From Candidatus Omnitrophota bacterium (GTDB taxonomy: Bacteria; Omnitrophota; Gorgyraeia; Zapsychrales; Zapsychraceae), in NCBI GenBank assembly GCA_029261055.1, contig JAJDCA010000068.1, positions 5,275 to 69,274 of the forward strand: a stretch of DNA of 64,000 nt, in the 5' to 3' direction. Of this stretch, positions 1 through 38,129 are shown in pieces. The position numbers and the translations under genes were made by a program. Positions within the stretch are counted from its first letter, which is position 1; every line of letters starts with the position of its first letter. The notes under the pieces are model-generated. The model was given only the letters and a program-made list of their open reading frames with translations, did no database searches and was not told the origin of the DNA.

Positions 1-913
1 TTTTTTCAACGATAGGGACGCGTTCTAAAACCTGCGCCCGATGGGCACGCGTCATCACAATAATAAGATCAGCCTTTTTAAGCAAAACAGTACTCACCGA
101 CTGCGAAACATGCTCCTCAGCATCAATCCCTCTTTCTCCTAATACAGAAATTGTTTCAGCACTTGCTTTAGACCTCAAAAAAACACTCGTACCAGCCGAT
201 ATGACCTCAACATCATCACGCTCTTTAATTTGATCCCGCAAAAGATATTCTGCCATGACAGAACGACAACTATTACCCGTACATACAAAGAGGACCGTCT
301 TTCTTCGTGTCATAGCTTCCACATCAGACTCCGTAATGACACCTTCCCGCAACACAATCGGTTTTTGATTGGTTAAATCTACCACCGAAGAACTACTCCC
401 GATTTTTGATGTCCCTCCATCAATCGCAACTTCTACCAAACCATCTAAATCCTTTAAAGCCTCATCACAAGTAGTCGGCGGATTTTTTCCTCCTACATTT
501 GCCGAAGGAGCCGCAATGGTACATTGTGATTCTTGCACCAATCGTAAAGCAATCGGATGATCCGGCATACGCACCCCGATGGTCTTTCCCTCTTCTTTAG
601 CAGGGACAACCACCGTTAAAGGCCCCGGCCAGTAGGCATCAATAAATTTGTACAAAAGAGGATCGGCCATTGAGGTGTAATTAGAGATGAGCCCTCGTTG
701 TGAAACTAAAATCGCAAAAGGCTTATCGGCTGCTCTTTTTTTAACAGCACGCAATCGACCCATAGCTTGAGGGTTAGAGAAATCTGCGGCAATACCGTAC
801 ACCGTCTCTGTAGGAAAAATAACTAATCCGCCCTTACGTATGACCTTGGCACAATACGCAATTTCTTTTAAGTCAGGAAATTCAGGATGAGTTTGAATAA
901 TTTTAGTTTTCAC
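1..913 (-). CDS. tsaC: Fusion protein: L-threonylcarbamoyladenylate synthase (TsaC/YrdC domain) + C-terminal low-molecular-weight protein tyrosine/arginine phosphatase domain; 3' end runs off the window
   Basis: Hand translation of the minus strand from GTG at 913-911, which overlaps the purE stop as GTGA. N-terminal ~195 aa: VKTKIIQTHPEF...KGGLVIFPTETVYGIAADFSNPQAMGRLRAVKKR...YWPGPLTVVVPA...CTIAAPSANVGGKNPPT (YrdC/Sua5 core motifs). Then from aa ~205: KTVLFVCTGNSCRSVMAEYLL...ISAGTS...ADLIIVMTRAHR (LMW-PTP CX5R P-loop, similar to B. subtilis YwlE). Absent from the ORF track because there is no stop codon inside the window. Confidence 0.75.
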   Translation of the reverse strand, partial: MKTKIIQTHPEFPDLKEIAYCAKVIRKGGLVIFPTETVYGIAADFSNPQAMGRLRAVKKRAADKPFAILVSQRGLISNYTSMADPLLYKFIDAYWPGPLTVVVPAKEEGKTIGVRMPDHPIALRLVQESQCTIAAPSANVGGKNPPTTCDEALKDLDGLVEVAIDGGTSKIGSSSSVVDLTNQKPIVLREGVITESDVEAMTRRKTVLFVCTGNSCRSVMAEYLLRDQIKERDDVEVISAGTSVFLRSKASAETISVLGERGIDAEEHVSQSVSTVLLKKADLIIVMTRAHRAQVLERVPIVEK

Positions 914-1386
914 AACTTAATATTTAGAATTTTCTGTTTTTGCTCTTCTCGAAATTTTTCTAATTTCTCTGCAATCGCTGCGTCCTCAACACCAAAAATG
1001 CGTAATGCTAACAAAGCCGCATTCTTAGCGCCGGGCTTACCAATAGCAACGGAACCCACCGGCACTCCAGGTGGCATTTGTACAGTAGAAAGAAGGGCAT
1101 CCATCCCATTAAGCGAAGTAGCATCAATCGGCACACCGATCACCGGAAGCGTCGTATGTGCTGCGACTACTCCAGACAAAGCGGCCGAGGCCCCAGCCCC
1201 ACAAATAACAACCTTTACGCCACGTTCGCGTAAACCTTCAGCATATTCTGCCGTTTCCTTTGGTGTGCGATGTGCTGAAAGAACTCTTATTTCATAAGCA
1301 ACATCAAAGTCTTTTAAAACATTAGCTGCTTCTTCCATAACTGGAAGATCAGATTTACTCCCCATCATAATGGCAATCTTTGTCAT
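910..1386 (-). CDS. purE: N5-carboxyaminoimidazole ribonucleotide mutase (PurE)
   Basis: ORF 910..1425 contains MTKIAIMMGSKSDLPVMEEA...VICGAGASAALSGVVAAHTTLPVIGVP, which is classic PurE. The likely start is the internal MTKIAIMMGS Met at 1386. Confidence 0.9.
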   Translation of the reverse strand: MTKIAIMMGSKSDLPVMEEAANVLKDFDVAYEIRVLSAHRTPKETAEYAEGLRERGVKVVICGAGASAALSGVVAAHTTLPVIGVPIDATSLNGMDALLSTVQMPPGVPVGSVAIGKPGAKNAALLALRIFGVEDAAIAEKLEKFREEQKQKILNIKL

Positions 1387-1425
1387 AGTTAAAAATCCTC
1401 GCTTTGCTCGATGATTTTTAGTCAT

Positions 1426-1504
1426 CAGATGTCAGTCTTCAGCCATCAGTATCTTATTTTTTTACTGACGTCTGATAGCTGATGTCTGATGACTAACATT
1501 TAAA
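1426..1504. repeat. Palindromic intergenic element (gtcatcagatgtcag ... ctgacgtctgatagctgatgtctgatgac); same repeat family as 43006-43119
   Basis: Long imperfect inverted repeat between purE and purD. It shares the motifs GATGTCTGATGA, CAGCTATCAGAC (as reverse complement) and TCTTCAG(C/T)C with the fcl/wbaP intergenic element. Confidence 0.6.
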
Positions 1505-2782
1505 TTACGTCTTCGCCAATGCTTTAGCGCCAATATCTCGGCGGAAAAAGCAATGATCAAACTTTATTTTTTCCACATTTTCATAAGCCCGCTCGACGGC
1601 CTTGTCTAACCCATGTGCTAAACTCGTCACACCTAAAACACGTCCACCGGAAGTCACAATTTTATTTTCTTCTTTTTTAGTTCCCGCATGAAAAACAATT
1701 GTATTCACTTCCTTTTCATCAATCTGTTCCAACCCGGTAATTTCCATACCTGTTTCATATTCTCCTGGATATCCCCCAGAACTCATCACGACACAAACAC
1801 ACGCCCTCTGATCCCAAAGCGGTTTTATTTTCTTTATCCGTCCATCACAACTGGCCAACATAATATCCACAATGTCATTTTTCATTCGTGGTAGTATCGC
1901 TTGCACTTCCGGATCACCAAAACGCACATTGTATTCTAAGACCATCGGTCCTTGAGAAGTAATCATCAAGCCTGCGTACAAAACACCTTTAAACGGCATC
2001 CCCTCTTGCTTCATCCCTTTAATAGTCGGATCAATAATAGACTGTTCAATATGTTGACGTAAGACATCGGTAATAATAGGCGCGGGTGAATAGGCTCCCA
2101 TACCTCCCGTATTGGGCCCCAAATCATCGTCAAAGATCCGTTTGTGATCTTGTGAAGAATCTAACATGATGAAATCATTGCCATCACTAACGGCTAAAAT
2201 GGAAACTTCTTCCCCTTGGAGACATTCCTCAATCACCACCTTGTTTCCCGCCTCTTGGAAAACCTTCTGTCCCATAATTTGATCAAGAGCTTGTTGCCCC
2301 TCTTCTAAATTTGCGCAAATAATAACACCTTTTCCAGCGGCAAGCCCGTCAGCCTTAATCACCAAAGGAAAAGTAACCTTCTCTAAAAACCCTTTGGCCT
2401 CCATAATATCGCCAAATGTCTGAAACGGAGCTGTTGGAATATTGTGCTTATGCATGAATTCTTTTGAAAAAACTTTACTGCCTTCCAATTGAGCGGCGGC
2501 CTTACTTGGGCCAAAAACCTTAAGACCATTTTTCACAAAATCATCGACAATACCATCGGCCAAAGGAACTTCGGGACCGATGACGGTGAGATCAACCTTT
2601 TTATCTTTAGCAAATTTGAGTAAATAATCTCTATCAGCCACCTTAATATCAAAACATTGCGCCACCTCGGACATTCCACCATTACCCGGAGCACAATAAA
2701 TTTCCTGAACTAAAGGACTTTGTTTAATTTTCCAAGCAAGGGCATGTTCTCTTCCACCGGAACCAATAATGAGGATGTTCAT
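1505..2782 (-). CDS. purD: Phosphoribosylamine--glycine ligase (GAR synthetase)
   Basis: 425-aa ORF, MNILIIGSGGREHALAWK..., ATP-grasp PurD signature. Overlaps purM by 4 nt. Confidence 0.92.
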   Translation of the reverse strand: MNILIIGSGGREHALAWKIKQSPLVQEIYCAPGNGGMSEVAQCFDIKVADRDYLLKFAKDKKVDLTVIGPEVPLADGIVDDFVKNGLKVFGPSKAAAQLEGSKVFSKEFMHKHNIPTAPFQTFGDIMEAKGFLEKVTFPLVIKADGLAAGKGVIICANLEEGQQALDQIMGQKVFQEAGNKVVIEECLQGEEVSILAVSDGNDFIMLDSSQDHKRIFDDDLGPNTGGMGAYSPAPIITDVLRQHIEQSIIDPTIKGMKQEGMPFKGVLYAGLMITSQGPMVLEYNVRFGDPEVQAILPRMKNDIVDIMLASCDGRIKKIKPLWDQRACVCVVMSSGGYPGEYETGMEITGLEQIDEKEVNTIVFHAGTKKEENKIVTSGGRVLGVTSLAHGLDKAVERAYENVEKIKFDHCFFRRDIGAKALAKT

Positions 2783-3777
2783 AATATGATTTTCCTTTTG
2801 TTGTCTTTTACAACTTTTCCAATCTCATAAAACTTAATATTTTTCTTTTTCAAAAATGTACTAATCCCATTAATATCTTTTTGACTAACAACCACAGCAT
2901 ACCCAATCCCCATGTTAAACGTTCTGTACATTTCTGAATCAGCTATTCTACCTTTTTTTTGAAGAAGTGGAAATATTTTTGGCGGCACCCAGCTCGCCTT
3001 GTCAATGGCAAAACATAACCCCTTTGGAAGAACCTTTGTAAGCTTGTCATAAAAAGCCCCTCCGGTCACATGCGCCATACCCTTTACCGAAAACTTACTT
3101 AAAATAGCCTGAACCTCATCCACATAAATCTTTGTCGGCGCCAACAATTCTTTTGCATGCTTTTTTAATTCCGCTCGCGACAAAACCTTCCTCACTAATG
3201 AAAATCCGTTAGAATGCAATCCGCTTGACGGTAATCCAATCACACGATCTCCCGCCTTAATTTTTCTGCCATCAATAATACCGCTTTTCTCGACAATACC
3301 TACGGCAAACCCGGCCAAATCATATTCATTAGGTTTGTACATGCCCGGCATTTCGGCTGTCTCTCCACCGATCAAACTACATCCAGACTGACGACAACCA
3401 TTCGCGATACCTTTAACTACATCTTTTAAAACTTTAGGATCCAATCGACCACAAGCAATGTAATCTAAGAAAAATAGAGGCTGGGCTCCGACACACAAAA
3501 TATCATTGACGTTCATCGCCACAAGATCAATACCAACGGTGTCATGAACACCCATACTTTGGGCTAACAAAAGTTTAGTCCCTACCCCATCCGTTGACGA
3601 AACAAGAACAGGATTCTTGTACTTCTTATTGTCGAGTGCAAAAAGCCCACCAAAAGCACCTTCACGATGCAGTACAGCGGCAGACTGTGTTTTTTTCACA
3701 TCCGCCCCGATGGCCTTTACAAAAATATTCGCCTTAGCAATGTCGACTCCACTAGTTTTGTAGGTAAATTTTTTCAT
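2779..3777 (-). CDS. purM: Phosphoribosylformylglycinamidine cyclo-ligase (AIR synthetase)
   Basis: 332-aa ORF with the PurM/AIRS N- and C-domain motifs (GGLFALD..., DLAGFAVGIVEK...). Confidence 0.92.
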   Translation of the reverse strand: MKKFTYKTSGVDIAKANIFVKAIGADVKKTQSAAVLHREGAFGGLFALDNKKYKNPVLVSSTDGVGTKLLLAQSMGVHDTVGIDLVAMNVNDILCVGAQPLFFLDYIACGRLDPKVLKDVVKGIANGCRQSGCSLIGGETAEMPGMYKPNEYDLAGFAVGIVEKSGIIDGRKIKAGDRVIGLPSSGLHSNGFSLVRKVLSRAELKKHAKELLAPTKIYVDEVQAILSKFSVKGMAHVTGGAFYDKLTKVLPKGLCFAIDKASWVPPKIFPLLQKKGRIADSEMYRTFNMGIGYAVVVSQKDINGISTFLKKKNIKFYEIGKVVKDNKRKIIL

Positions 3778-4169
3778 ATCTTTTTTCCATATTTCATAAT
3801 ATGCTGATCAATAACTTCTAAAAATTCTTTCGCATCACCCCAACATTCCTGAGCATCCGCATATTCCACAAAATACATGGCATCATAATCAGCTTTAACT
3901 CGATTATCTTGCTCCATATTAAATATTTTCCCATATTTCACATCAATCTTTCCTGTTTTAATAATATGTTGGCCAAAAAGTCTGCGTACAGCCCTATGTG
4001 AACTGGTGCTTATCCCTTCCAAAATTAAAACCGCCTTGGCTGCATGAAGAACGGCATAATATGATCGCGAAATAGCATCCTCATAATAATCATTATCTAA
4101 TAAAAGTTTTGCCGAATTTAAAGTCTTTTTAGCTCGACTTAATTCGCTATTCACTTCCTCCATACTCAT
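3774..4169 (-). CDS. HEPN-domain protein (putative toxin of a HEPN/MNT pair)
   Basis: 131 aa with an Rx4-6H HEPN motif (HRAVRRLFGQH). 4-nt overlaps with both the MNT gene upstream and purM downstream. Confidence 0.7.
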   Translation of the reverse strand: MSMEEVNSELSRAKKTLNSAKLLLDNDYYEDAISRSYYAVLHAAKAVLILEGISTSSHRAVRRLFGQHIIKTGKIDVKYGKIFNMEQDNRVKADYDAMYFVEYADAQECWGDAKEFLEVIDQHIMKYGKKI

Positions 4170-4495
4170 AGCGCAATAGCCTCATTTTCAACATTTTTAA
4201 TGAATTGCGTCTGAATACCCTTAAGGTAATTTAAATATTTTTTGGAAAAAATCTGAATAGAAAAAATAAGATCGTGCTGTATTTCTAAATCATATCCCGC
4301 GCATCTAATTTCCCTGGCAAGCTTTCTGTCATCTGAAGCTGTGACAATAAGAATATCAATATCCGAGTCCTTATGCGCATCTCCCCGAGCTTTTGAACCA
4401 AAAACTAAAACTTCAAGAATTTCTGATGCATGCTTTTTTTTAAGATTTTGCTTAAAAATTCCAAGAATTTTTTTTTCTTCCAGCGTTAACCCCAT
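4166..4495 (-). CDS. Minimal nucleotidyltransferase (MNT) domain protein (putative antitoxin)
   Basis: 109 aa; LVFGSKARGDAHKDSDIDILIV is a GS-x9-DxD nucleotidyltransferase motif. Sits immediately upstream of the HEPN gene, the usual MNT-HEPN order. Confidence 0.75.
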   Translation of the reverse strand: MGLTLEEKKILGIFKQNLKKKHASEILEVLVFGSKARGDAHKDSDIDILIVTASDDRKLAREIRCAGYDLEIQHDLIFSIQIFSKKYLNYLKGIQTQFIKNVENEAIAL

Positions 4496-4510
4496 AGCGA
4501 TTCCTCTCTA

Positions 4511-5332
4511 TTATTTAATCAACCTATTCTTAACGTACTTCACGCCATTCTCAAAAATCTTTGCCCCTTGACCAAATTTTTTATCACGCCCACTTTTTAA
4601 CCTCGTCCAATATGGATGATGCGTAAAAAGAAAATAACGCTCAGGATGAGGCATTAAACCTAAAATGCGGCCTGTTGAATCCGTAATACCGGCAATATCA
4701 TCTGTAGAACCATTTGGATTTTCAGGATAACCTGGTTTGGCACCTTCGGCTGTACAATAACGAAAAGCTACCTGACCATTTTTTACTAACGCCTTTAACA
4801 CGGACGGATCTTTCGTCACAAACTTTCCTTCAGCATGGGCGACCGGATAATACACGACATCTTCTAAGCCTTCCGTCCACACAGATTGTCCACTGACTTT
4901 TAAATGAGCCCAACGCGCTTCAAACTTTGCAGAGTCATTAGATATCAACGTGGCCTTCTGGGAAGAATCGTGATTCTTTTTTTCTTTGGCATTTAGAGCC
5001 CCAGGCAAAATACCTGACTTAACCAAAATCTGAAACCCATTACAAATTCCAATGATCAATTTACCCTCCCCAATAAAACGGCACAAATCTTCCCCTAAAT
5101 GCAAACGTAATTCATTGGCTAAAATACGCCCCGATTCAATATCGTCACCATACGTAAACCCTCCGGGAAGAGCTAAGATGTGGTAATCATGCAAAGAAAC
5201 TGTGCCTTTTAAAAGTTTATTAATATGCACAAGATCTGCTTTTGCGCCAAAACTCTTAAAAGCAAAAGCTGTTTCTTCATCACAATTTGTACCGGCGGTA
5301 CGTAAGACTATTACTTTTACTGAATTCTTCAT
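4511..5332 (-). CDS. purQ: Phosphoribosylformylglycinamidine synthase glutaminase subunit (PurQ)
   Basis: 273 aa; class I glutamine amidotransferase with LALPGGFTYGDD and the catalytic IGICNGFQIL. Confidence 0.88.
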   Translation of the reverse strand: MKNSVKVIVLRTAGTNCDEETAFAFKSFGAKADLVHINKLLKGTVSLHDYHILALPGGFTYGDDIESGRILANELRLHLGEDLCRFIGEGKLIIGICNGFQILVKSGILPGALNAKEKKNHDSSQKATLISNDSAKFEARWAHLKVSGQSVWTEGLEDVVYYPVAHAEGKFVTKDPSVLKALVKNGQVAFRYCTAEGAKPGYPENPNGSTDDIAGITDSTGRILGLMPHPERYFLFTHHPYWTRLKSGRDKKFGQGAKIFENGVKYVKNRLIK

Positions 5333-5465
5333 ATTTTCTTACTTAGAAGTAAAGACGTAGAGAAACAAGATGCAGAGAAAAAAACCTTTTACTACTTTGC
5401 TTCTCTACATCTCTATTTCTTACATCTTTTATCTCTACCTCTTGCTTCTTACACCTCTGTTTCTT

Positions 5466-6131
5466 TTACAGATTTTTCTCAGCCGCGTAAAATGCCTTGA
5501 TCTTTTTTACCACATCCTCGGGCGTATCGACAATACGAAAAAGATCCATATCGGCTGGATCAATGTTTTTTTCTTTCAGCACCGTATTTTTAATCCACTT
5601 AATCAACGGCCCCCAAAATTCTTTACCATAAAGAACAACTGGAAATTTTTCCATACGCCGCGTCTGGATGAGTGTTAAACTTTCAAACAATTCATCCAGC
5701 GTTCCAAACCCTCCAGGGAAAATTACAAAAGCCTTGGCATATTTAACAAACATAACTTTTCGACAGAAAAAATAATGAAAATTAATCGGATGATTAACAA
5801 AATGATTTGTTTTCTGCTCAAAAGGAAGATCAATATTTAATCCGATGGATCGCCCTTTTGCTTTTAACGCCCCTTTATTACCTGCCTCCATTATGCCGGG
5901 ACCACCGCCGGTGATGACAGCATAACCATCTTTGACTAAAAGCTTGGAAGTCTCAACCGCCTCTTTGTACCATTTATGATTTGTCTTCGTTCGGGCTGAT
6001 CCAAAAATACTGACGGCTGGGCCAATTTCTGAAAGTGAATGAAACCCTTCGACAAACTCCGCCATAATCCGAAATACCCGCCAAGGATCTTCTAATTTTA
6101 AATCTTCCACTGCTTCATTGTTTAAGCTCAT
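5466..6131 (-). CDS. LOG family protein (TIGR00730; cytokinin riboside 5'-monophosphate phosphoribohydrolase / nucleotide 5'-monophosphate nucleosidase-like)
   Basis: Contains the TGGGPGIMEAGNKGA and PGGFGTLDELFE LOG signatures. The ORF begins at 6197, but the upstream 22 codons lie in a GC-rich palindrome; the likely start is MSLNNEA at 6131. Confidence 0.75.
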   Translation of the reverse strand: MSLNNEAVEDLKLEDPWRVFRIMAEFVEGFHSLSEIGPAVSIFGSARTKTNHKWYKEAVETSKLLVKDGYAVITGGGPGIMEAGNKGALKAKGRSIGLNIDLPFEQKTNHFVNHPINFHYFFCRKVMFVKYAKAFVIFPGGFGTLDELFESLTLIQTRRMEKFPVVLYGKEFWGPLIKWIKNTVLKEKNIDPADMDLFRIVDTPEDVVKKIKAFYAAEKNL

Positions 6132-6213
6132 GTTGTATCCTTTTTCGTGACGCGTCGCTCGTGGCGCGTGACTCGTTTCTTGCGAGCGACGCGTCACAAG
6201 TCACGAGCGACAA
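6132..6213. repeat. GC-rich compound palindrome / stem-loop between purL and the LOG gene
   Basis: cgtgacgcgtcgctcg...cgagcgacgcgtcac is a perfect 15-bp inverted repeat. A second, overlapping pair is gtcgctcgtg/cacgagcgac. It stands out in an AT-rich background. Confidence 0.7.
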
Positions 6214-9156
6214 TTAAAATTTTAATGGTTCTTGCCATGCAGTTTTCAAATCATTAATATCCGCACAGACACACACCTCTTGTTTTAATCCATAAACGAC
6301 AAATTCCGATGTTTCTTCAACTCGTCCCACCAAACCAAAAGGAACACCTTTCAAAATCCTTTCAAAATTCTTTTGGTCTTGAGGTTCAATCTCAACAATA
6401 AAACGTGAATTAGATTCTGAAAACAAAACCGTGTCATTTCGGTCTATGCCCTTTTTAAATGGCACATTATCTAAACGTGCCGTAACGCCAAAACCTCCAC
6501 TAAAAGCCATCTCAGCAAGCGCTACACCAATACCACCTTCTGAACAATCATGCATAGATCGAATAAAACCTTTTTGCACGGCATTTTTTAAAGCTGTAAA
6601 TGTCTTACGTCCTTGCGGCATATTCAGTTTGGGTACAGAACTTCCTAGAAAACCACATGTATCCCAATAGATAGATCCACCAAGCTCGTCAAATGTTTCA
6701 CCGATACAATACACAAGATTACCATCCTTTTTAAAATCCATCGTCACTGTTTTAGTAACATCATCCACAATCCCAATCGCAGAAATAAGAAGCGTCCCGG
6801 GAATCGCAATAGATTTTTTTCCCTCGGTGTATTCATTGTACAAACTATCTTTTCCAGAAATAAAAGGCACCTGATATCCAATAGCCGTCTTGTAACACCC
6901 TTCGGCTGCCCGCACTAAACTCCCCAAACGGTCGGGTTTGTCCGGATTCCCCCAACAAAAATTATCTAAAATCGCAATACGTTCAAAATCACCGCCCACC
7001 GCCACAATTTGCCGAACCGCCTCATCAATACACGAAGCCGCCATCCAAAATGGATCAATCATACCGTAACGCACATTAATCCCATTGGACACGGCAATGC
7101 CTTTTTTACTGCCGAGCTTAGGCGTGATGACACTCGCATCCGACGGCCCATCTCCATGAACACCAACAAAAGGCTTAATAACGCTTCCCCCCTGCACTTC
7201 ATGATCATACTGACGTACCACCCATTCTTTCGAACACACATTGTAATGCCCAAGGGCCTCAGACAATTTTTTCGTCAAATTAATAGGCGCGTCAATTTTA
7301 GGATTTTTAACTACTGATGTACGCCAATGCGCTTTGCGACTAATTTTTGGAGGACCTCCATGAATAAAATCCATTTCCAAATTACACACAGCCTGGCCAT
7401 CATAAAAAAGTTCCAAATGTTTATTCCCGGTAAATTCACCAATCACTGTAGCCTCAACATTTTCATCAGAAAATATTTTTAAAAACGCATTAATTTTCTT
7501 AGCCGGCACAGACATCACCATTCTTTCTTGCGCTTCGGAAATCCAAACTTCCATGTAGCTTAAACCCTTGTACTTCAAAGGAATCTTTTCCAAATCCACA
7601 CGCACACCCAACTCTTCGCCCATTTCCCCGGCGGCACTCGATAATCCACCAGCGCCACAATCTGTAATCGCCGTGTACAAATTTTTATCGCGTGCTTGAA
7701 TAAGAGCATCCAAAACTTTTTTCTCTTGAATCGGATCACCAATCTGAACAGCCCCTGAAGAAACTGTTTCCGATTCATCTGTCAATTCACCCGAAGAAAA
7801 CGTCGCACCATGAATACCATCTCGTCCTGTCCGTCCACCAACCACAACAACCAAATCTCCCCGACAAACTTTTTTCTTCACCTTGTCTTTGGGCATAATA
7901 CCGACACTCCCGCAATACACTAAAGGATTGCCGACAAATTTTTCATCAAAAATAATAGAACCGTTAATCGTAGGGATACCCATTTTATTTCCATAATCAC
8001 GAACCCCTGACACGACACCTTTCATGACTCTTTTAGGATGCAATGTTCCCGGCGGTAAATCTTTGAACGATGTATCTGGCGGCGCAAAACAAAAAACATC
8101 CGTCGAACACACTGGCTTAGCCCCCAACCCTGTCCCGAGAATATCGCGTATTACACCGCCGATGCCGGTATTAGCCCCACCAAAAGGCTCCAAGGCTGAT
8201 GGATGATTGTGTGTCTCAACCTTAAAACAAACGTTTGAATCTTTGTCAAATTTAATCACACCAGCATTGTCATAAAACACGGAAACGCACCAGGATTTAT
8301 TAATTTCGTTCGTTGCCTTAACAATCGTCGATTTCAAAAGATTGCGCACCATCTTCGTTTTTGTCTTCCCGTTCTCTGAACATTGGTATTCAATATTCCC
8401 TCGAAATGTTTTGTGGTAGCAATGTTCACTCCACGTCTGCGCAATGGTTTCTAATTCACAGTCTGTAGGATTTTGTTTTCTCTTTTGAAAATGTCGCTGA
8501 ATAGCTTTCATTTCGTTAAGGTTCAAAAACAACTGCCCCTTACGACTGATCTGCATCAACTTACGATCGGAAGCATCAATCAAACTGACAATAATAGGAA
8601 TGGATTTTTTATTCACCGCGAGGGCTGGCCTAGCCCCTTCGCCTACAACATCCGCTACAACATGCTGAAGTACTTTGTTCGACAAAATTTTCTCAACGAC
8701 CGTATTCAACTCTCGCTTTGCAATATTGCCGTACAATAGATATTTCTTTGCTGTATGGACAGACTGAACTGTTTCAATCCCCAGGAGACTGTTCGAGGAT
8801 ATAAGTTTCGAACAGTCTCTTAGGTCACGAATCCCTTTAATTGTGGAATGCTCCACAGGATCCATCACACCGGGATTGTAGGCAATCTCAACACAATGAA
8901 GATTCTTTTTAGAATATTTTGGAGAAGACGTCTGATCTGCGGAAGCAGTGTACGTCTGGGTGATTTTATCAACAAGCAACTCTTTACAGATCATCCGAAC
9001 TTGCTTTTCCGTAAGGTCACCTGCAATATTGTAAATATGATGAACTTGGACTTTCGAAACAGACACAATACCCAAGTCGACGATATTTTTTTGAATACCT
9101 TCGCCTAAAGAGTCGAAAACACCTGCTTTATGTTTTATTTCAATGCGCCAGAGCAT
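6214..9156 (-). CDS. purL: Phosphoribosylformylglycinamidine synthase: fusion of two N-terminal PurS-like domains with the synthetase subunit PurL
   Basis: N-terminus MLWRIEIKHKAGVFDSLGEGIQKNIVDLGI... is PurS-like. A second PurS-like stretch follows (VMDPVEHSTIKGIRDL...KYLLYG), then the canonical PurL start (...AQTWSEHCYHKTF) and tandem AIRS-like domains. The ORF extends to a TTG at 9165; the ATG at 9156 is the more likely start. Confidence 0.85.
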   Translation of the reverse strand: MLWRIEIKHKAGVFDSLGEGIQKNIVDLGIVSVSKVQVHHIYNIAGDLTEKQVRMICKELLVDKITQTYTASADQTSSPKYSKKNLHCVEIAYNPGVMDPVEHSTIKGIRDLRDCSKLISSNSLLGIETVQSVHTAKKYLLYGNIAKRELNTVVEKILSNKVLQHVVADVVGEGARPALAVNKKSIPIIVSLIDASDRKLMQISRKGQLFLNLNEMKAIQRHFQKRKQNPTDCELETIAQTWSEHCYHKTFRGNIEYQCSENGKTKTKMVRNLLKSTIVKATNEINKSWCVSVFYDNAGVIKFDKDSNVCFKVETHNHPSALEPFGGANTGIGGVIRDILGTGLGAKPVCSTDVFCFAPPDTSFKDLPPGTLHPKRVMKGVVSGVRDYGNKMGIPTINGSIIFDEKFVGNPLVYCGSVGIMPKDKVKKKVCRGDLVVVVGGRTGRDGIHGATFSSGELTDESETVSSGAVQIGDPIQEKKVLDALIQARDKNLYTAITDCGAGGLSSAAGEMGEELGVRVDLEKIPLKYKGLSYMEVWISEAQERMVMSVPAKKINAFLKIFSDENVEATVIGEFTGNKHLELFYDGQAVCNLEMDFIHGGPPKISRKAHWRTSVVKNPKIDAPINLTKKLSEALGHYNVCSKEWVVRQYDHEVQGGSVIKPFVGVHGDGPSDASVITPKLGSKKGIAVSNGINVRYGMIDPFWMAASCIDEAVRQIVAVGGDFERIAILDNFCWGNPDKPDRLGSLVRAAEGCYKTAIGYQVPFISGKDSLYNEYTEGKKSIAIPGTLLISAIGIVDDVTKTVTMDFKKDGNLVYCIGETFDELGGSIYWDTCGFLGSSVPKLNMPQGRKTFTALKNAVQKGFIRSMHDCSEGGIGVALAEMAFSGGFGVTARLDNVPFKKGIDRNDTVLFSESNSRFIVEIEPQDQKNFERILKGVPFGLVGRVEETSEFVVYGLKQEVCVCADINDLKTAWQEPLKF

Positions 9157-9204
9157 GTTGGCCAAATAGGTGAAGGATATTATTAGGGGTTAATAAGAGT
9201 TAGG

Positions 9205-9229
9205 AATTGTCCAAATTCTTTGGACAATT
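9205..9229. promoter_or_regulatory. Perfect palindrome AATTGTCCAAA-TTC-TTTGGACAATT in the purC-purL intergenic region (possible operator or RNA hairpin)
   Basis: 11-bp arms with a 3-nt spacer, ~25 nt upstream of the purS/L start codon. Confidence 0.4.
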
Positions 9230-9231
9230 TC

Positions 9232-9936
9232 TTACTTACTTACTCTATTCAAAACTTCTTGGTAGGCCTCTTCGATATCGCCCATATCATGTCGAAAACG
9301 GTCTTTATCCAATTTCTTGCCTGTCCCAGCTTCCCAGATGCGACAAGTATCCGGTGAAATTTCATCTGCTAAAATAATCTCACCCTTACATCGTCCAAAT
9401 TCTATTTTAAAATCAACCAAATCCAAATTCAATTTAGCAAAAAACTGCTTCATCAATGCGTTAATTTTAAACGTGTAATTCTTAATAACTTCAAGTTCTT
9501 CCGGGGTGGCTAAATTAAGAACCTGAATGTGATATTCATTCATCAAAGGGTCATTAAATTCATCACATTTGTAACAATATTCCAAAACCGGTGAAGAAAG
9601 CTCAACACCTTGTTCAGCTCCATAATTCCTACAAAAAGATCCCGCGGCTTTATTACGAATAATGACTTCAATCGGAACAATTTCCACCTTCTTAACAAGC
9701 ATCTCACGATCACTTAAATGCTTTTCAAAATGGGAAGGCACGCCCTCACTTTTAAGATACTCAAAAATTTTAGTAGAAATTTTATTGTTGAATACCCCTT
9801 TATTCTCGATCGTCCCTTTTTTGGCAGCATTAAAAGCCGTCGCGTCATCTTTAAAATACTGGATGACAAAATCAGGATCATTTGTGTTGTAAAGAATCTT
9901 TGCTTTTCCTTCGTAAATTTGGCCTTTTTTTTCCAT
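9232..9936 (-). CDS. purC: Phosphoribosylaminoimidazole-succinocarboxamide synthase (SAICAR synthetase)
   Basis: 234-aa ORF; MEKKGQIYEGKAKILY... is the PurC signature. Confidence 0.9.
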   Translation of the reverse strand: MEKKGQIYEGKAKILYNTNDPDFVIQYFKDDATAFNAAKKGTIENKGVFNNKISTKIFEYLKSEGVPSHFEKHLSDREMLVKKVEIVPIEVIIRNKAAGSFCRNYGAEQGVELSSPVLEYCYKCDEFNDPLMNEYHIQVLNLATPEELEVIKNYTFKINALMKQFFAKLNLDLVDFKIEFGRCKGEIILADEISPDTCRIWEAGTGKKLDKDRFRHDMGDIEEAYQEVLNRVSK

Positions 9937-11231
9937 TATTTTAATCCTATTTTTTTGAAAACTTTTTCCACATGACGCGTGTAATAGCGAATGTCAAAAC
10001 AAGCGTCGATTTCATTAGGTTTAAGATATTTTCTCACTTTTCTATCTCTGTAGAGAATATCTTTAAAATCTGACGTTTCTTGCCAAACCTGCATAGCACA
10101 ACGCTGAATAATATCATACGCAGCCTCACGAGCAACACCTTTTTTCATCAATTCTAAAAGGACTCTTTGCGAATAAATCAGCCCCTTAGTCCTGCTGAGA
10201 TTAGTGATCATATTTTTAGGATAAACCAAAAGCCCGTCCATGATGGATGTCATTTTGTGAAACATGTAATCGAGGGCAATCGCACTATCCGGCAAAATAA
10301 TCCTTTCTACTGAAGAGTGACTAATATCTCTTTCATGCCACAAAGTCATATTTTCAAATGCGGCCTGCGCATTAGCTCTTAACAAACGTGACATCCCGGT
10401 AACACGCTCACAAACAACAGGGTTGCGCTTATGCGGCATAGCTGAAGAACCGATTTGTCCTTTAAAAAATGGCTCTTCCACTTCTAAAACTTCTGTCTTT
10501 TGTAAAAGACGAATTTCCGTAGCAATTTTAGTAAGGCTGCCACCAATAAGGGCAAGTGTCGTTACAAACTGACAATGATGATCTCTTTGAATAATTTGCG
10601 TGGCAATATTAATCGGCTTCAACTCTAATTTTTCACACACATATTCCTCTACAGAAGGATCAATATTGGCAAACGTGCCGACAGCACCGGATAATTTACC
10701 GAAACGCATCATTTCTTTGGCCTGCTCCAAGCGTTCAGCATTACGTTTCATTTCATCATACCAAACACCTATTTTTAAACCAAATGTGGTGGGTTCTGCA
10801 TGCACACCATGTGTACGGGCGATACAGGTCGTATCTTTGTACTTTTTTGCTTTTTGTTTCAGAACCTGTAGAAATTTTTTAATATCGGCGAGAAGAAGAT
10901 CACTTGCTTCAACACATTGAACGGAAAGAGATGTATCCAAAAGATCCGAAGATGTTAGCCCCATATGTAGATATCTGGCCTCTGGCCCCAAATATTGACC
11001 AACATTATTAATAAACGCAACGATGTCGTGTTTTGTTTTCTCTTCTATTTTTTTAACTTCATCAATGTCAAATTTGGCATTCTTTTTAATTTTCTCCATC
11101 GCCTTTTTAGGAATAACGCCTAACTTGCACATAGCTTCACAAGCCAAAACCTCAATCTTGAGCATAATTTCCATCCTATGCTTCTCAGACCACACATCGC
11201 CCATTTTCGATAAAGTGTAACGATCAATCAT
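9936..11231 (-). CDS. purB: Adenylosuccinate lyase
   Basis: 431 aa; fumarate-lyase family with the ...GSSAMPHKRNP... signature. First gene of the minus-strand pur operon. Confidence 0.92.
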   Translation of the reverse strand: MIDRYTLSKMGDVWSEKHRMEIMLKIEVLACEAMCKLGVIPKKAMEKIKKNAKFDIDEVKKIEEKTKHDIVAFINNVGQYLGPEARYLHMGLTSSDLLDTSLSVQCVEASDLLLADIKKFLQVLKQKAKKYKDTTCIARTHGVHAEPTTFGLKIGVWYDEMKRNAERLEQAKEMMRFGKLSGAVGTFANIDPSVEEYVCEKLELKPINIATQIIQRDHHCQFVTTLALIGGSLTKIATEIRLLQKTEVLEVEEPFFKGQIGSSAMPHKRNPVVCERVTGMSRLLRANAQAAFENMTLWHERDISHSSVERIILPDSAIALDYMFHKMTSIMDGLLVYPKNMITNLSRTKGLIYSQRVLLELMKKGVAREAAYDIIQRCAMQVWQETSDFKDILYRDRKVRKYLKPNEIDACFDIRYYTRHVEKVFKKIGLK

Positions 11232-11280
11232 ATTATTGACTCCTCGCGTGAAAGATTAAAAAAATAAGTGAAACGCGGAT

Positions 11281-11309
11281 AATATATCAGAAAAGATTTA
11301 TGCGGTCAA
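11281..11309 (-). promoter_or_regulatory. Sigma70-like promoter upstream of purB (TTGACC-N17-TATATT)
   Basis: On the minus strand, ttgaccgcataaatcttttctgatatatt. The -35 is at 11309-11304 and the -10 at 11286-11281. A GAGGAG RBS sits 6 nt before the purB ATG. Confidence 0.5.
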
Positions 11310-11411
11310 TGGAAATTAACGTAATTACAGCAATTTTCTCAGAAAAATGAATATAACCTATTGTTAATACTTAGGATACATTCTTAAAAAATTTATTCTA
11401 CCTAATGAATT

Positions 11412-11476
11412 CAAGCAAAGCTGGGGGGAGTTGGGCGGGGGTGATGTAGATTTTAACTAAATAGAATACCATTTTT
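11412..11476. repeat. Copy R4 (partial) of the giant-gene 3'-terminal repeat
   Basis: caagcaaagctggggggagttgggcgggggtgatg matches the core of 13437-13490. It is followed by atagaataccattttt, the tail motif shared with 11973-11990 and 12722-12738. Confidence 0.8.
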
Positions 11477-11687
11477 CAATAGTAATCTTCTTTCCTAAAA
11501 TAAGTTCAATTTCATGAAGCATCATTTTTAATTGTGGAACGGAATATTCATGATTGGAAGGAATCGCGAGACGATACCCTTGCTTCACCATAAAATGGTG
11601 ACGCGTGCCAGCAAAAGGCCCGTCAAATCCAAGCTTGCGTAAACGGCGAAGGAAATCTTTTCTCTTACACGGAGACCATCGAGTCAC
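11457..11687 (-). CDS. hicA: HicA-family mRNA interferase toxin
   Basis: 76 aa; KRKDFLRRLRKLGFDGPFAGTRHHFMVK...SVPQLKMMLHEIEL fits the HicA pattern. Confidence 0.65.
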   Translation of the reverse strand: MTRWSPCKRKDFLRRLRKLGFDGPFAGTRHHFMVKQGYRLAIPSNHEYSVPQLKMMLHEIELILGKKITIEKWYSI

Positions 11688-11931
11688 GACGCGGCTTTCT
11701 ATTAAGATTAAGTTTATTTAAGACAGGCAACTTGTGCCCTAATTTAAGACCGACAATAATCCAATCTTCTAGGATAGATCGTAATTCAGCTTCACATTGC
11801 GTCAACGATTTAGCAAAAGCAATCACACCTTTACATTTTGGTATGCGCCCCACAAATGAATTATCTTCCAGCTTATCATATTCAGCACGCGCTAATGCAT
11901 GCTGAATGTAATTAGTTAACATAAATTTCAT
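11665..11931 (-). CDS. hicB: HicB-family antitoxin (UPF0150)
   Basis: EDNSFVGRIPKCKGVIAFAKSLTQCEAELRSILEDWI matches the HicB/UPF0150 core. The likely start is MKFMLTNY (11931), inside the 11961 ORF. Confidence 0.6.
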   Translation of the reverse strand: MKFMLTNYIQHALARAEYDKLEDNSFVGRIPKCKGVIAFAKSLTQCEAELRSILEDWIIVGLKLGHKLPVLNKLNLNRKPRRDSMVSV

Positions 11932-11967
11932 ATGCCCCCCTTTTTTTCTAAACCATACCATGTTATC

Positions 11968-12080
11968 TATTTTAAGAATACCATTTTTTTCTCTACTTCG
12001 CTATATTTTCTATTTCTTCGACAAGGTCAATTGAAGCAAAGCCGGGGGGAGCTGGGCGGGGGTGATATTGAGGATGACGG
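11968..12080. repeat. Copy R3 of the giant-gene 3'-terminal repeat (tail + stop codon + core)
   Basis: ttcttcgacaaggtcaattgaagcaaagccggggggagctgggcgggggtgatattgaggatgacgg. On the minus strand it encodes ...SVILNITPAQLPPALLQLTLSKK*. Confidence 0.85.
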
Positions 12081-12095
12081 AATCAATATAATTTT

Positions 12096-12338
12096 TTAAC
12101 GATTTATTTTCTCATACAAAGTTTCCGGGGCAATATCAACACCATTAGGCCATGTAATTGTACCACCGTCGATAACCGCCTGCTTAAAAAAACGTAAATC
12201 ACGCAATGCCTCAAAAACAGGGCCCTTCTCTAAATATGCAGAAAAATCCACCTCTCCCTCTGACCCATCATCAAATACAATACGAAAAACATAATCCTTT
12301 TCATACTGTATTTTTTTTACCTCATTCATATTCCACAT
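12096..12338 (-). CDS. DUF2442 domain protein (partner of DUF4160; TA-like pair)
   Basis: 80 aa; [18 protein letters not shown] is a DUF2442-type C-terminus. Confidence 0.6.
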
Positions 12339-12346
12339 AATTCACC

Positions 12347-12607
12347 TCATGTTAATGGCTCAATTTTCTTAAGTTCTTTACCTGCCCTCGCAAATTCCCA
12401 ATCTTCAATAAGCTCTTTCTGATGGAGGTCTATCCACTCTCTAATTAATTTCCTCGCTGTTTTTGAATCTATACTTCCCCTCGTTACGTTCCCATTAAAA
12501 TCAAAAACTGCTTTATCATCTTGGTACTCAGCATGTAAATGCGGAGGATTGTGTTCATCGTAATACATTCTTATCAAAATTCCAAAAAACCTAGATACGA
12601 TTGGCAT
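12347..12607 (-). CDS. DUF4160 domain protein
   Basis: MPIVSRFFGILIRMYYDEHNPPHLHAEYQ is a DUF4160 hallmark. The start is at the internal Met, preceded by an AAAGGA RBS. Confidence 0.65.
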   Translation of the reverse strand: MPIVSRFFGILIRMYYDEHNPPHLHAEYQDDKAVFDFNGNVTRGSIDSKTARKLIREWIDLHQKELIEDWEFARAGKELKKIEPLT

Positions 12608-12712
12608 TAAAATTCCTTTCTTTAGTAATTTATAGTATTCGCAAATTAAATTCGTTAATTTTGAAATAGCCATCAGTGTCGATTCAAGGTGACCTAAAAA
12701 TCTACGTATTTG

Positions 12713-12871
12713 TTTTGCGAATACTATATTTAAAGAATACCATTTTTTTCCTCATCGCGCTATATTTTCTATTTCTTCAACAAGGTCAATTGAAGCAAAG
12801 CCGGGGGGAGTTGGGCGGGGGTGATGTTGAGGATGACGGAGACAAGGCCAGGGAAGTTGCCGGTTTGGATG
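12713..12871. repeat. Copy R2 of the giant-gene 3'-terminal repeat (tail + stop + ~114-nt core)
   Basis: About 90% identical to 13425-13540. On the minus strand it encodes ...IQTGNFPGLVSVILNITPAQLPPALLQLTLLKK*, in frame directly after the DUF2442 stop codon. Confidence 0.9.
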
Positions 12872-13105
12872 TCAGGTATTTGCGGCTTTGTAAAGACCAT
12901 CAATGGATAAGTCCTCATCCACATCCGGCCAATGAATGCCGTATCCTGACGGGCTTACACAATAATTTTGTTTCTGCGCTAAACTTGCGGTGGTTAGTCT
13001 TTTTGAAACCTGAGAAATATCAATAGCATATTCTTTACCATCAATTTGCAACATCATGATATTTTCTTTAAAAAAAACATTTTTGACATTATGCATCTTA
13101 TTCAT
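12872..13105 (-). CDS. DUF2442 domain protein
   Basis: GYGIHWPDVDEDLSIDGLY is a DUF2442 motif. Start uncertain (MNKMHNV... or MHNV...); the full ORF runs to 13159. Confidence 0.6.
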   Translation of the reverse strand: MNKMHNVKNVFFKENIMMLQIDGKEYAIDISQVSKRLTTASLAQKQNYCVSPSGYGIHWPDVDEDLSIDGLYKAANT

Positions 13106-13355
13106 CTTTTCCTCCCATAAATTCATCCCACTGAGCCACAATGTAATCAAAATGATCAAATATAATTTTCCTAATACTTCTTTTATCTTGTGGACTCATA
13201 TTGTATCCATAGGCTTCACGAATTTCATAAATATCAACATCAAGCCAATACTTACACTCAGACTCTGCTTTTTTACAATGAATGTGTATCGGCTCATTAC
13301 CCTCATTAGAATAAAAATAAAGCCGCCACCCCATTATGACTAAAATTGTCGGCAT
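13098..13355 (-). CDS. DUF4160 domain protein
   Basis: MPTILVIMGWRLYFYSNEGNEPIHIHCKK. Internal Met start with an AGGAGA RBS. Confidence 0.65.
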   Translation of the reverse strand: MPTILVIMGWRLYFYSNEGNEPIHIHCKKAESECKYWLDVDIYEIREAYGYNMSPQDKRSIRKIIFDHFDYIVAQWDEFMGGKDE

Positions 13356-13424
13356 GTGCATTTCTCCTTTCGCTAAAAAGGATGCCATATTTTTACATAT
13401 TGGTCAAGGAGGATTTGCATGTGC

Positions 13425-13540
13425 TTATTTCTTCGACAAGGTCAATTGAAGCAAAGCCGGGGGGAGTTGGGCGGGGGTGATGTTGAGGATGACAGGGACG
13501 AGGCCGGGGAAGTTACCGGTTTGAATGTCACGCATCTGTT
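13425..13540. repeat. R1: the 3' terminus of the giant gene, the master copy of repeats R2-R5
   Basis: Encodes ...MRDIQTGNFPGLVPVILNITPAQLPPALLQLTLSKK*. Near-identical copies lie at 12758-12871, 12011-12080 and 11412-11448; a diverged copy lies at 37321-37385. Confidence 0.9.
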
Positions 13541-37385: not shown

Positions 37386-37796
37386 TTACAGGATTTTTAT
37401 CCCTATTTTCCGACATACGGCATTTAATTTTTTATCGAAAGATGCCATATCTAAATTTTTCCTTAAGGCGAGCTCTATATAAGAAGCATCATAAACTGTT
37501 ATTTTATGCTCTCGACTGATAGCTAAAATATCTTTTGTAATGTTATCGTAACTATTATTTTCCACAAAAAGCGACAAATCTTTTAAACTACTAATAAAAG
37601 AAACAGAATCTGCTTCCTTTATGCGTCCATTTTTCTCTGCAATAAATAACGCATTCGACAATTCATATGGCCATAATGAAGGGACATAGGCATTTTGCTT
37701 AAGAAGCTTGTTCAATAACTCTTGAGATTTTTTAGTGTTTTCGTCTTTAAACACCCAACTTAAAATGACGGAATTATCTACGACAAAATCTTTCAA
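37386..37796 (-). CDS. vapC: PIN-domain toxin (VapC-like)
   Basis: 136 aa: an N-terminal D (VVDNSVIL), a D in VYDASYIELAL, and PIN-like overall size and architecture. Confidence 0.65.
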   Translation of the reverse strand: MKDFVVDNSVILSWVFKDENTKKSQELLNKLLKQNAYVPSLWPYELSNALFIAEKNGRIKEADSVSFISSLKDLSLFVENNSYDNITKDILAISREHKITVYDASYIELALRKNLDMASFDKKLNAVCRKIGIKIL

Positions 37797-38032
37797 TACC
37801 GCCTCCCTTTTTTAATAAGTTTCTGAATTTCCTTTTGAGGCAGCTTATATTTTTGGCGTATTTCTAGAATCCGTGCTATCGCCTCTTCGGCTTTCTTTTG
37901 ATTATTTTCTGGGGGCAATATTCTTGCAACTGGTTTTCCATTTTTTGTAATTAAATACGTTTCTCCGCTAAATGCCTTTTGAACGATTTCTGCAAAATGT
38001 GTTTTTGCTTCGAAAGAGCCTATCTCAACCAT
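37793..38032 (-). CDS. Phd/YefM-type antitoxin
   Basis: MVEIGSFEAKTHFAEIVQKAFSGETYLITKNGKPVARILP matches the Phd/YefM N-terminal pattern. 4-nt overlap with vapC. Confidence 0.6.
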   Translation of the reverse strand: MVEIGSFEAKTHFAEIVQKAFSGETYLITKNGKPVARILPPENNQKKAEEAIARILEIRQKYKLPQKEIQKLIKKGRRY

Positions 38033-38129
38033 AATACCCTCCTTTAAACTAGTCTGTTTAACTAGTTTAAGTTTAACACAAAAAAAACTATCTGGCAAGG
38101 TTCTAAGAAATCCTTACGTATTATCTATT

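Follow-up and report, generated by a model that had tools for sequence, protein, structure and literature searches.

The closest described relatives of the gene pair that we examine here are the Class II HEPN/MNT modules, in which a HEPN protein of family PF05168, with a conserved tyrosine and without the RX4HXY motif, is paired with a minimal nucleotidyltransferase (MNT) of family PF01909 (Yao et al. 2020, PMC7641770); the Class II HEPN proteins correspond to the HEPN-T family of Anantharaman et al. (PMC3710099), and in PF05168 an aspartate is often located in place of the histidine, where another conserved histidine may act instead (PMC3710099, Table 1). Our pair is located between purQ and purM in the purine biosynthesis operon of a Candidatus Omnitrophota bacterium, in a 64,000-nucleotide (nt) stretch of contig JAJDCA010000068.1 (assembly GCA_029261055.1) that we refer to as the window, and all coordinates without a locus label are window positions. 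We consider it likely that the pair is a Class II HEPN/MNT mobile module that has been acquired horizontally as a promoter-less 733-nt insert at the purQ-purM junction, where it is expressed by read-through and has persisted.

The window pair resembles the Class II modules (Makarova 2009; Yao et al. 2020, PMC7641770) in that an MNT of 109 amino acids (aa) with a GSx10DxD motif is encoded upstream of a five-helix HEPN of ~130 aa, with a 4-nt overlap between the two genes, in that the HEPN lacks RX4HXY and conserves the tyrosine, and in its patchy, cross-phylum spread in defence and mobile contexts. Unlike its Class II relatives, it has 15 nt upstream and no regulatory region, it is found in an Omnitrophota host, and the stop codon of its toxin gene merges with the start codon of the essential biosynthetic gene that follows; the nearest solved structures are the complex PDB 9xbd and, for the HEPN, AF0298 (2hsb). 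The Type VII HepT/MntA systems (Class I; Shewanella SO_3166/3165, Aphanizomenon, Legionella) share with it the MNT-then-HEPN order, the GSx10DxD antitoxin and a conserved tyrosine near a conserved arginine, a plausible AMP acceptor; unlike in these systems, the window HEPN belongs to PF05168, not to DUF86/PF08780, and has no Rx4H, the MNT scores 31.4 bits against the NCBIfam MntA equivalog NF047752 (cutoff 60), and the template-modelling (TM) score of the HEPN with HepT is ~0.6. E. coli relA-mazEF and S. aureus mazEF-sigB, which we take to be toxin-antitoxin loci that are co-transcribed with housekeeping or regulatory genes, are similar as chromosomal pairs that are co-directional in or beside a non-mobile operon and have transcripts in common with it; these loci presumably have their own promoter and an operon-edge location, whereas the window pair lies inside its operon, lacks a promoter and overlaps the essential gene that comes next. 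Our literature search for toxin-antitoxin modules in purine operons has found nothing relevant.

In the Omnitrophota host, the order of the operon is purB-purC-purSL-LOG-purQ-[MNT-HEPN]-purM-purD-purE, with all genes on the minus strand. The pair, its neighbours and its junctions are the following:

4511-5332, minus strand: purQ, FGAM synthase glutaminase subunit, upstream neighbour of MNT (PF13507/GATase_5, 4.8e-79; TIGR01737, 2.5e-60)
4496-4510, minus strand: 15-nt spacer between the purQ stop and the MNT ATG, TAGAGAGGAATCGCT, with a Shine-Dalgarno-like GAGAGGA
4166-4495, minus strand: MNT, minimal nucleotidyltransferase and putative antitoxin, 109 aa (Pfam, PADLOC, motif and PDB match)
4166-4169, minus strand: ATGA shared by the MNT stop and the HEPN start
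3774-4169, minus strand: HEPN (PF05168, Class II, UPF0332 type), putative toxin, 131 aa (Pfam, alignment, PDB, AlphaFold2/Foldseek)
3774-3777, minus strand: ATGA shared by the HEPN stop and the purM start
2779-3777, minus strand: purM, AIR synthase, downstream neighbour of HEPN (TIGR00878, 1.1e-128)
2779-2782, minus strand: ATGA shared by the purM stop and the purD start
1505-2782, minus strand: purD, GAR synthetase (GARS_N, GARS_A and GARS_C domains)

An earlier note on this DNA had placed an MNT gene and a HEPN gene between purQ and purM and had described 4-nt overlaps at the MNT/HEPN, HEPN/purM and purM/purD junctions; we have found both open reading frames (ORFs) on the minus strand at exactly those coordinates and all three overlaps, and the Pfam search backs both of its domain assignments; with the refinements given below, its interpretation is essentially borne out. 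The Logan assembly of SRR15505515 (contig L001) is 100% identical across 8640 nt, with all cassette junctions covered; a chimeric contig is therefore unlikely, with the caveat that both assemblies may derive from the same reads. The two ORFs are real genes rather than chance ORFs.

The HEPN protein matches PF05168 at 1.4e-21 (77 bits, cutoff 22) and the PADLOC family PDC-M05B; NCBIfam gave no match, and Pfam gave PF05168 alone, not DUF86/PF01934 or PF08780. All the residues that are invariant in the subfamily are kept (R12, D31, S34, R35, Y37, Y38, H42, K45, H58, R90 and D94; alignment A1), while Y95 and D96 are conserved in at least 90% of the sequences of the same alignment. At the position where Rx4-6H is expected, the protein has R90-VKA-D94-Y95-D96, with no histidine located four to six residues past R90; the sequence R35-x6-H42 is literally present, though inside helix 2, and both H42 and H58 are invariant. 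The AlphaFold2 model (predicted local distance difference test, pLDDT, 93.7) has five helices, i.e. the all-alpha bundle of HEPN, with R35 and H42 located in helix 2, while H58 opens helix 3 and the segment R90-Y95 closes helix 4. The top ranks of the Foldseek search are occupied by AF0298 (2hsb, TM 0.86), ST0689 and TT1696, and the top matches are HEPN proteins, save for a few weak exceptions at high E-values.

The MNT protein matches PF01909 (NTP_transf_2, 2.6e-12) and PF18765 (Polbeta, 3.6e-9) in Pfam, and the defence-candidate families PDC-S09 (5.4e-18) and PDC-M05A in PADLOC. Its GSx10DxD motif is intact (G33 S34 x10 D45 I46 D47) and invariant among homologues (alignment A2), and by homology the protein would be an active nucleotidyltransferase that binds HEPN. 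The two window proteins match two separate chains of a single solved complex, PDB 9xbd: HEPN matches chain A (1.9e-13; 2hsb, 1.1e-6) and MNT matches chain E (2.3e-9); the companion entry 9xbc differs from the wild-type 9xbd by a Tyr-to-Phe change at the residue that is aligned to Y95 of HEPN. From these features, i.e. PF05168 with an adjacent upstream PF01909 that carries GSx10DxD, no RX4HXY and the tyrosine kept, we assign the module to Class II HEPN/MNT. It is not safe to label the predicted HEPN as a ribonuclease (RNase), as it is a Class II protein without the canonical Rx4-6H.

For the comparison of the insertion site, we have fetched 160 loci (80 from genomes, 80 from metagenomes; designated by L numbers), ~130 of which have pur flanks, and have mapped ten window proteins on them by tblastn. 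The closest relatives of PurM, at 64-72% identity, occur in Omnitrophota metagenome-assembled genomes, and the conserved Omnitrophota operon is purB-purC-purSL-LOG-purQ-purM-purD-purE. Whether the pair is also present between purQ and purM in relatives had been raised as a check in the earlier note, and the answer is negative: apart from the window's own contig, no MNT or HEPN match occurs at the purQ-purM junction in the ~130 related pur loci. In L002 (GTGA) and L092, purQ and purM share a stop/start overlap on TGA, while in L003, L004, L006 and L094-L096 the gap between them is 15-50 nt, with 48 nt in the nearest relative, L004. In the DNA alignment, homology extends up to the last purQ codons and resumes at the purM ATG, and the window carries an insert of 733 nt. 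Because the two genes adjoin or overlap each other in the nearest relatives, the MNT-HEPN pair is a clean, lineage-specific insertion; the view of the earlier note that the pair does not lie in an accessory island holds, but the pair is itself accessory. In more distant Omnitrophota, purF, often together with a purF-like paralogue, is located between purQ and purM, and L024 keeps a 74-aa remnant; the junction had therefore already been remodelled before the insertion.

Proteins identical to the window MNT and HEPN are confined to one NCBI contig and one Logan contig; beyond these, the most similar homologues reach 60% identity for HEPN and 55% for MNT. The GC content at third codon positions (GC3) of the cassette, 0.264-0.265, is at the low end of the window range (0.262-0.408) and the codon fit is good; the host-like codon usage and the intact ORFs and motifs suggest an old, maintained insertion. 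No tRNA or tmRNA integration site is present in the window, and the search for direct or inverted repeats that flank the cassette (target-site duplication, attC-like) gave only chance-level matches of 19-30 nt.

Close homologues of the module are mostly located in CRISPR, restriction-modification or toxin-antitoxin islands: the homologue of L082 adjoins Cas6/Cas1/Cas2/Cas4, those of L087 and L171 are located within toxin-antitoxin islands, and those of L173 and L175 in or near restriction-modification loci. Homologues occur on 31 plasmids; a phage origin has been considered and rejected, as no tblastn match was found in 50,697 phage records. MntA-type toxin-antitoxin genes have been reported as cargo of lateral transfer: a 2026 preprint (10.64898/2026.05.20.726742) names MntA among the toxin-antitoxin genes that are common to chromosomes and co-sampled mobile elements, in a data set with Omnitrophota as one dominant lineage. 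Homologous pairs are also located beside housekeeping genes: in an unrelated metagenomic genome (L084:2322-5569), two Class II MNT-HEPN pairs are located on either side of argH and ahead of lysA, all on one strand, and in L177 a pair follows lon. In the intact homologous pairs, MNT is likewise 109 aa long and overlaps HEPN by 4 nt (L082, L084, L087, L171, L175, L177); their upstream non-coding region measures 300-900 nt in L082, L084 and L087, and only 0-82 nt in L171, L175 and L177. As a member of a very abundant family the window module is ordinary; what is unusual is how tightly it is packed into its context.

Other genes of toxin-antitoxin type occur at the same junction, or at the next one, in related pur clusters:

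L091:2456-2833 (metagenome contig VAPK010896197.1): HicB-HicA at purQ-purM, HicB-like (PF15919, 4.8e-8) and HicA (PF07927, 9.8e-16)
L008:1248-2291: Fic/DOC gene of 347 aa (PF02661, 1.2e-16) between purQ and purM
L099:4998-6033: HTH-MNT and PF05168 HEPN pair between purM and purD
L102:5078-5293: weak Rv0078B-like antitoxin between purM and purD

L091, which has the highest metagenomic PurM identity (72%), and L008 share with the window the operon, the purQ-purM junction and its dense packing; in L091, a 12-nt GGAGGG Shine-Dalgarno spacer follows purQ, and the stop of HicA and the ATG of purM overlap as ATGA. Both loci differ from the window in that the toxin families are unrelated and the hosts are on separate branches. 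In the neighbour-joining tree of purQ, purM and purD, the window adjoins the insert-free L004, and L091 and L008 are located on other branches; a sister relationship of the window and L091, with an ancestral slot, has been rejected, as the two never form an exclusive pair in this tree or in 200 bootstraps. The simplest reading of the tree is three independent captures at purQ-purM among ~14 genomes, which is a small sample, and the junction would thus be a recurrent landing site for toxins. Among the 51 co-directional non-pur ORFs of 52 Omnitrophota pur loci, the search for further toxin-antitoxin families gave only two weak Rv0078B-like antitoxins. In L091, the HicA ORF continues in the HicB frame directly past the HicB TGA, and the first ~7 positions of the HicA profile are missing from it; either a broken fusion or read-through may account for this arrangement. 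In L005, one short repeat (TTACTCGGTTACTC..., ...YSVTWLL...) is located in both the purQ-purM and the purM-purD spacers (7657-8000 and 8991-9269), which suggests a small mobile repeat entering operon junctions.

The junctions purQ/MNT, MNT/HEPN, HEPN/purM and purM/purD measure +15, -4, -4 and -4 nt on one strand, and the block from purQ to purD is the most tightly packed stretch of the operon. A 4-nt overlap is the commonest type of operon junction, so that three consecutive ones are unremarkable by themselves. The 15-nt purQ-MNT spacer is too short to hold a separate promoter for the module. The duplex with the anti-Shine-Dalgarno sequence amounts to -6.4 kcal/mol for MNT, -5.6 for HEPN and -5.8 for purD, within a range of -5.6 to -8.2 kcal/mol for MNT, HEPN, purD and purB, while that of purM is weak (-3.3); the weak Shine-Dalgarno of purM is consistent with termination-reinitiation from HEPN. 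No terminator or stable hairpin was seen at the cassette borders (z about 0; z = -0.09 for the spacer 4496-4510), and the counts of promoter-like and terminator-like sites over 500-12500 are at the shuffle expectation. Read-through transcription from the pur operon and coupling of the cassette to purM are likely, given this geometry.

Under our preferred reading of a horizontally acquired, promoter-less mobile module, one Omnitrophota lineage would have gained an MNT-HEPN module of toxin-antitoxin or defence type, and the 733-nt cassette would have entered exactly at the purQ-purM junction, to be transcribed via read-through from the pur operon and translated as one coupled chain: purQ, the 15-nt Shine-Dalgarno spacer, MNT, ATGA, HEPN, ATGA, purM, ATGA, purD. 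By homology, MNT probably neutralises HEPN through complex formation and/or nucleotidylation of the conserved Tyr95. The cassette probably persists for three reasons: the module may be addictive or defensive, the site may tolerate insertions, and, if the cassette were lost imprecisely, polar effects on purM, purD and purE would follow from the weak ribosome-binding site of purM and its overlap with the HEPN stop.

The locus would offer a clean natural case of a mobile module of toxin-antitoxin type, without a promoter of its own, inside an essential biosynthetic operon, and a case of one operon junction into which three different toxin families have moved, independently of one another, in related genomes. 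If the coupling to purM holds, selfish modules of this kind would become hard to delete, since their loss would be polar on essential genes, and the dosage of the module would be tied to the metabolic state. As an intact, maintained Class II HEPN/MNT pair, it could also be used for probing the role of a poorly studied class.

Several points weigh against this reading. As of 2020, neither toxicity nor neutralisation had been shown for Class II modules, which had no biochemistry at that time (PMC7641770), and our literature search has found no publication on 9xbd/9xbc. Foreign composition has been considered and rejected, as the GC dip of the cassette (0.33-0.35) is within the normal range of the window genes, and composition thus gives no support for a foreign origin; the hotspot claim is based on three of ~14 loci; and co-transcription and coupling are deduced from the junction geometry. 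Lastly, a sigma-70-like sequence, TTGAGA-17-AAGAAT (9/12), is located inside the 3' end of purQ (4554-4526, minus strand), ~30 nt upstream of the MNT ATG.

This sequence is the basis of the strongest of the alternatives, which we nevertheless consider unlikely: that the module keeps an autoregulated promoter in the 3' end of purQ, independent of purine demand, which partly drives purM, purD and purE. Toxin-antitoxin modules normally autoregulate, and a promoter of this kind would be usual for such a module; however, the 9/12 match is at chance level (34 promoter-like sites against 30.9 expected from shuffles, in a scan with the sigma-70 consensus, Omnitrophota promoters being uncharacterised), and no other promoter or operator candidate was found upstream of MNT. 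The site is also purQ coding sequence that can be aligned with the insert-free relatives, the Pfam search finds no DNA-binding domain in MNT, and the long upstream regions of the homologous cassettes in L082, L084 and L087 are missing here.

It is rather improbable that the pair is no toxin-antitoxin system and is instead a two-subunit nucleotidyltransferase, with HEPN as the substrate-binding subunit as in kanamycin nucleotidyltransferase, that modifies a small molecule or another protein and is possibly linked with nucleotide metabolism. The weak similarity of MNT to aminoglycoside nucleotidyltransferases and the absence of Rx4-6H from the Class II HEPN speak for such an enzyme, as does the fact that MNT-fused or MNT-paired HEPN proteins can be inactive substrate-binding domains (PMC3710099); the genomic evidence, however, speaks against it, with the close homologues being located in the defence islands and plasmids described above and not among metabolic genes, the pair missing from the pur operons of all the relatives examined and bona fide toxin families of other kinds occurring at the same purQ-purM site. 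The PADLOC assignment of MNT to the defence-candidate families PDC-S09 and PDC-M05 points in the same direction, as does a shotgun-cloning screen in which motif-less HEPN proteins were toxic (cited in PMC3710099).

We give similarly low credence to a stronger version of the insertion scenario, in which the purQ-purM slot of this Omnitrophota clade repeatedly captures promoter-less toxin-antitoxin cassettes of unrelated families (MNT-HEPN, HicB-HicA, Fic), these are expressed by read-through and joined to purM by a stop/start overlap, and PurM, PurD and PurE depend on translation of the toxin, so that the insertion would not be neutral and would act as operon-level addiction or as a purine/ATP growth brake. 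Weakest of all, and very improbable, is a domesticated, purine-linked brake in which the antitoxin needs ATP and purine or ATP starvation frees HEPN and slows growth: the promoter-less placement in a purine operon, upstream of the weakly initiating purM, the use of ATP by Class I MNT-type antitoxins (PMC7641770) and the ATP-using Fic gene at the junction in L008 would fit it, but the pair is conserved in no relative examined, HicBA, the third occupant of the junction, has no nucleotide link, and modules of a similar kind also adjoin housekeeping genes that have nothing to do with purines (argH and lon in other genomes; secG, followed by Phd/PIN, here), which fits opportunistic insertion in a compact, co-directional genome.

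The remaining features of the operon are the following:

11281-11309, minus strand: best sigma-70-like site near the operon, TTGACC-17-TG-TATATT (10/12 and extended -10), 50 nt upstream of purB
9936-11231, minus strand: purB, first operon gene (translation; tblastn matches of 75-86% at the conserved position in relatives)
9232-9936, minus strand: purC, near the operon start, after purB (PF01259 on the identical Logan contig L001)
9166-9231, minus strand: purC-purSL spacer hairpin (z = -2.9)
6214-9165, minus strand: purS-purL fusion, FGAM synthase II (L001 gene call: PurS, FGAR-AT_linker, AIRS, AIRS_C)
6132-6213, minus strand: purSL-LOG spacer hairpin (-38.6 kcal/mol, z = -3.9)
5466-6197, minus strand: LOG/TIGR00730-family gene (PF03641, 1.3e-36; TIGR00730, 8.1e-44)
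5333-5465, minus strand: LOG-purQ spacer hairpin (-40.7 kcal/mol, z = -5.1)
1426-1504, minus strand: purD-purE spacer hairpin (-37.2 kcal/mol, z = -9.0)
910-1425, minus strand: purE (PF00731, 2e-62; the domain begins at residue 16)

The two best minus-strand promoter matches are located directly upstream of purB (11309-11281 and 11479-11450), and the first of these is a candidate operon promoter by its match to the consensus. The translation start of purE is probably an internal ATG near 1386; for the LOG gene, the ATG at 6131, which has an AAGGA Shine-Dalgarno, is a better candidate than the annotated GTG, which is probably not the true start. A LOG/TIGR00730 gene is located between purL and purQ in most of the Omnitrophota pur operons examined (L002-L031, L091-L134), and its product is possibly a nucleotide 5'-monophosphate nucleosidase. 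No purF, purN or purH is encoded within the window.

Long, stable hairpins without a U-tract are present in every longer pur spacer, i.e. the four listed above; these could be processing or stability elements, or inserts similar to miniature inverted-repeat transposable elements. Near relatives with short spacers at the hairpin positions have no room for such hairpins. The Rfam search for riboswitches and known RNAs over 1-13500 (E<=1) gave only spurious microRNA-like matches that are caused by the hairpins.

The window as a whole is almost entirely co-directional, with nearly all genes located on the minus strand, and is rich in toxin-antitoxin genes. A giant ORF of 7482 aa (13425-35873, minus strand) encodes an AAA_5 (MoxR/dynein-like) ATPase near residues 2515-2645, along with numerous WD40/beta-propeller repeats; Omnitrophota are known for giant proteins (bioRxiv 10.64898/2026.06.07.730766). 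Between purB and the giant gene lie three cassettes, two of DUF4160/DUF2442 and one that combines HicB (UPF0150) and a HicA-like gene; they are separated by a direct repeat of 60-119 nt that occurs four times (11391-11450, 12012-12071, 12771-12830 and 13427-13486, within 11391-13501). The repeat shows no fold and has no other copy in the window, with none near MNT/HEPN; its fourth copy forms the giant gene's own 3' end, encoding ...NITPAQLPPALLQLTLSKK, and the three cassettes look like the outcome of serial insertion at, or duplication of, this 3' end. On the minus strand, 31 nt downstream of pgk-tpiA-secG, the genes of a Phd/YefM antitoxin (37793-38098) and of a PIN toxin (37386-37796) overlap by 4 nt, which gives a second toxin-antitoxin pair attached to a string of housekeeping genes. 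The nesting of modules against housekeeping genes looks like a general effect of a compact, one-strand genome that is not specific to the purine genes.

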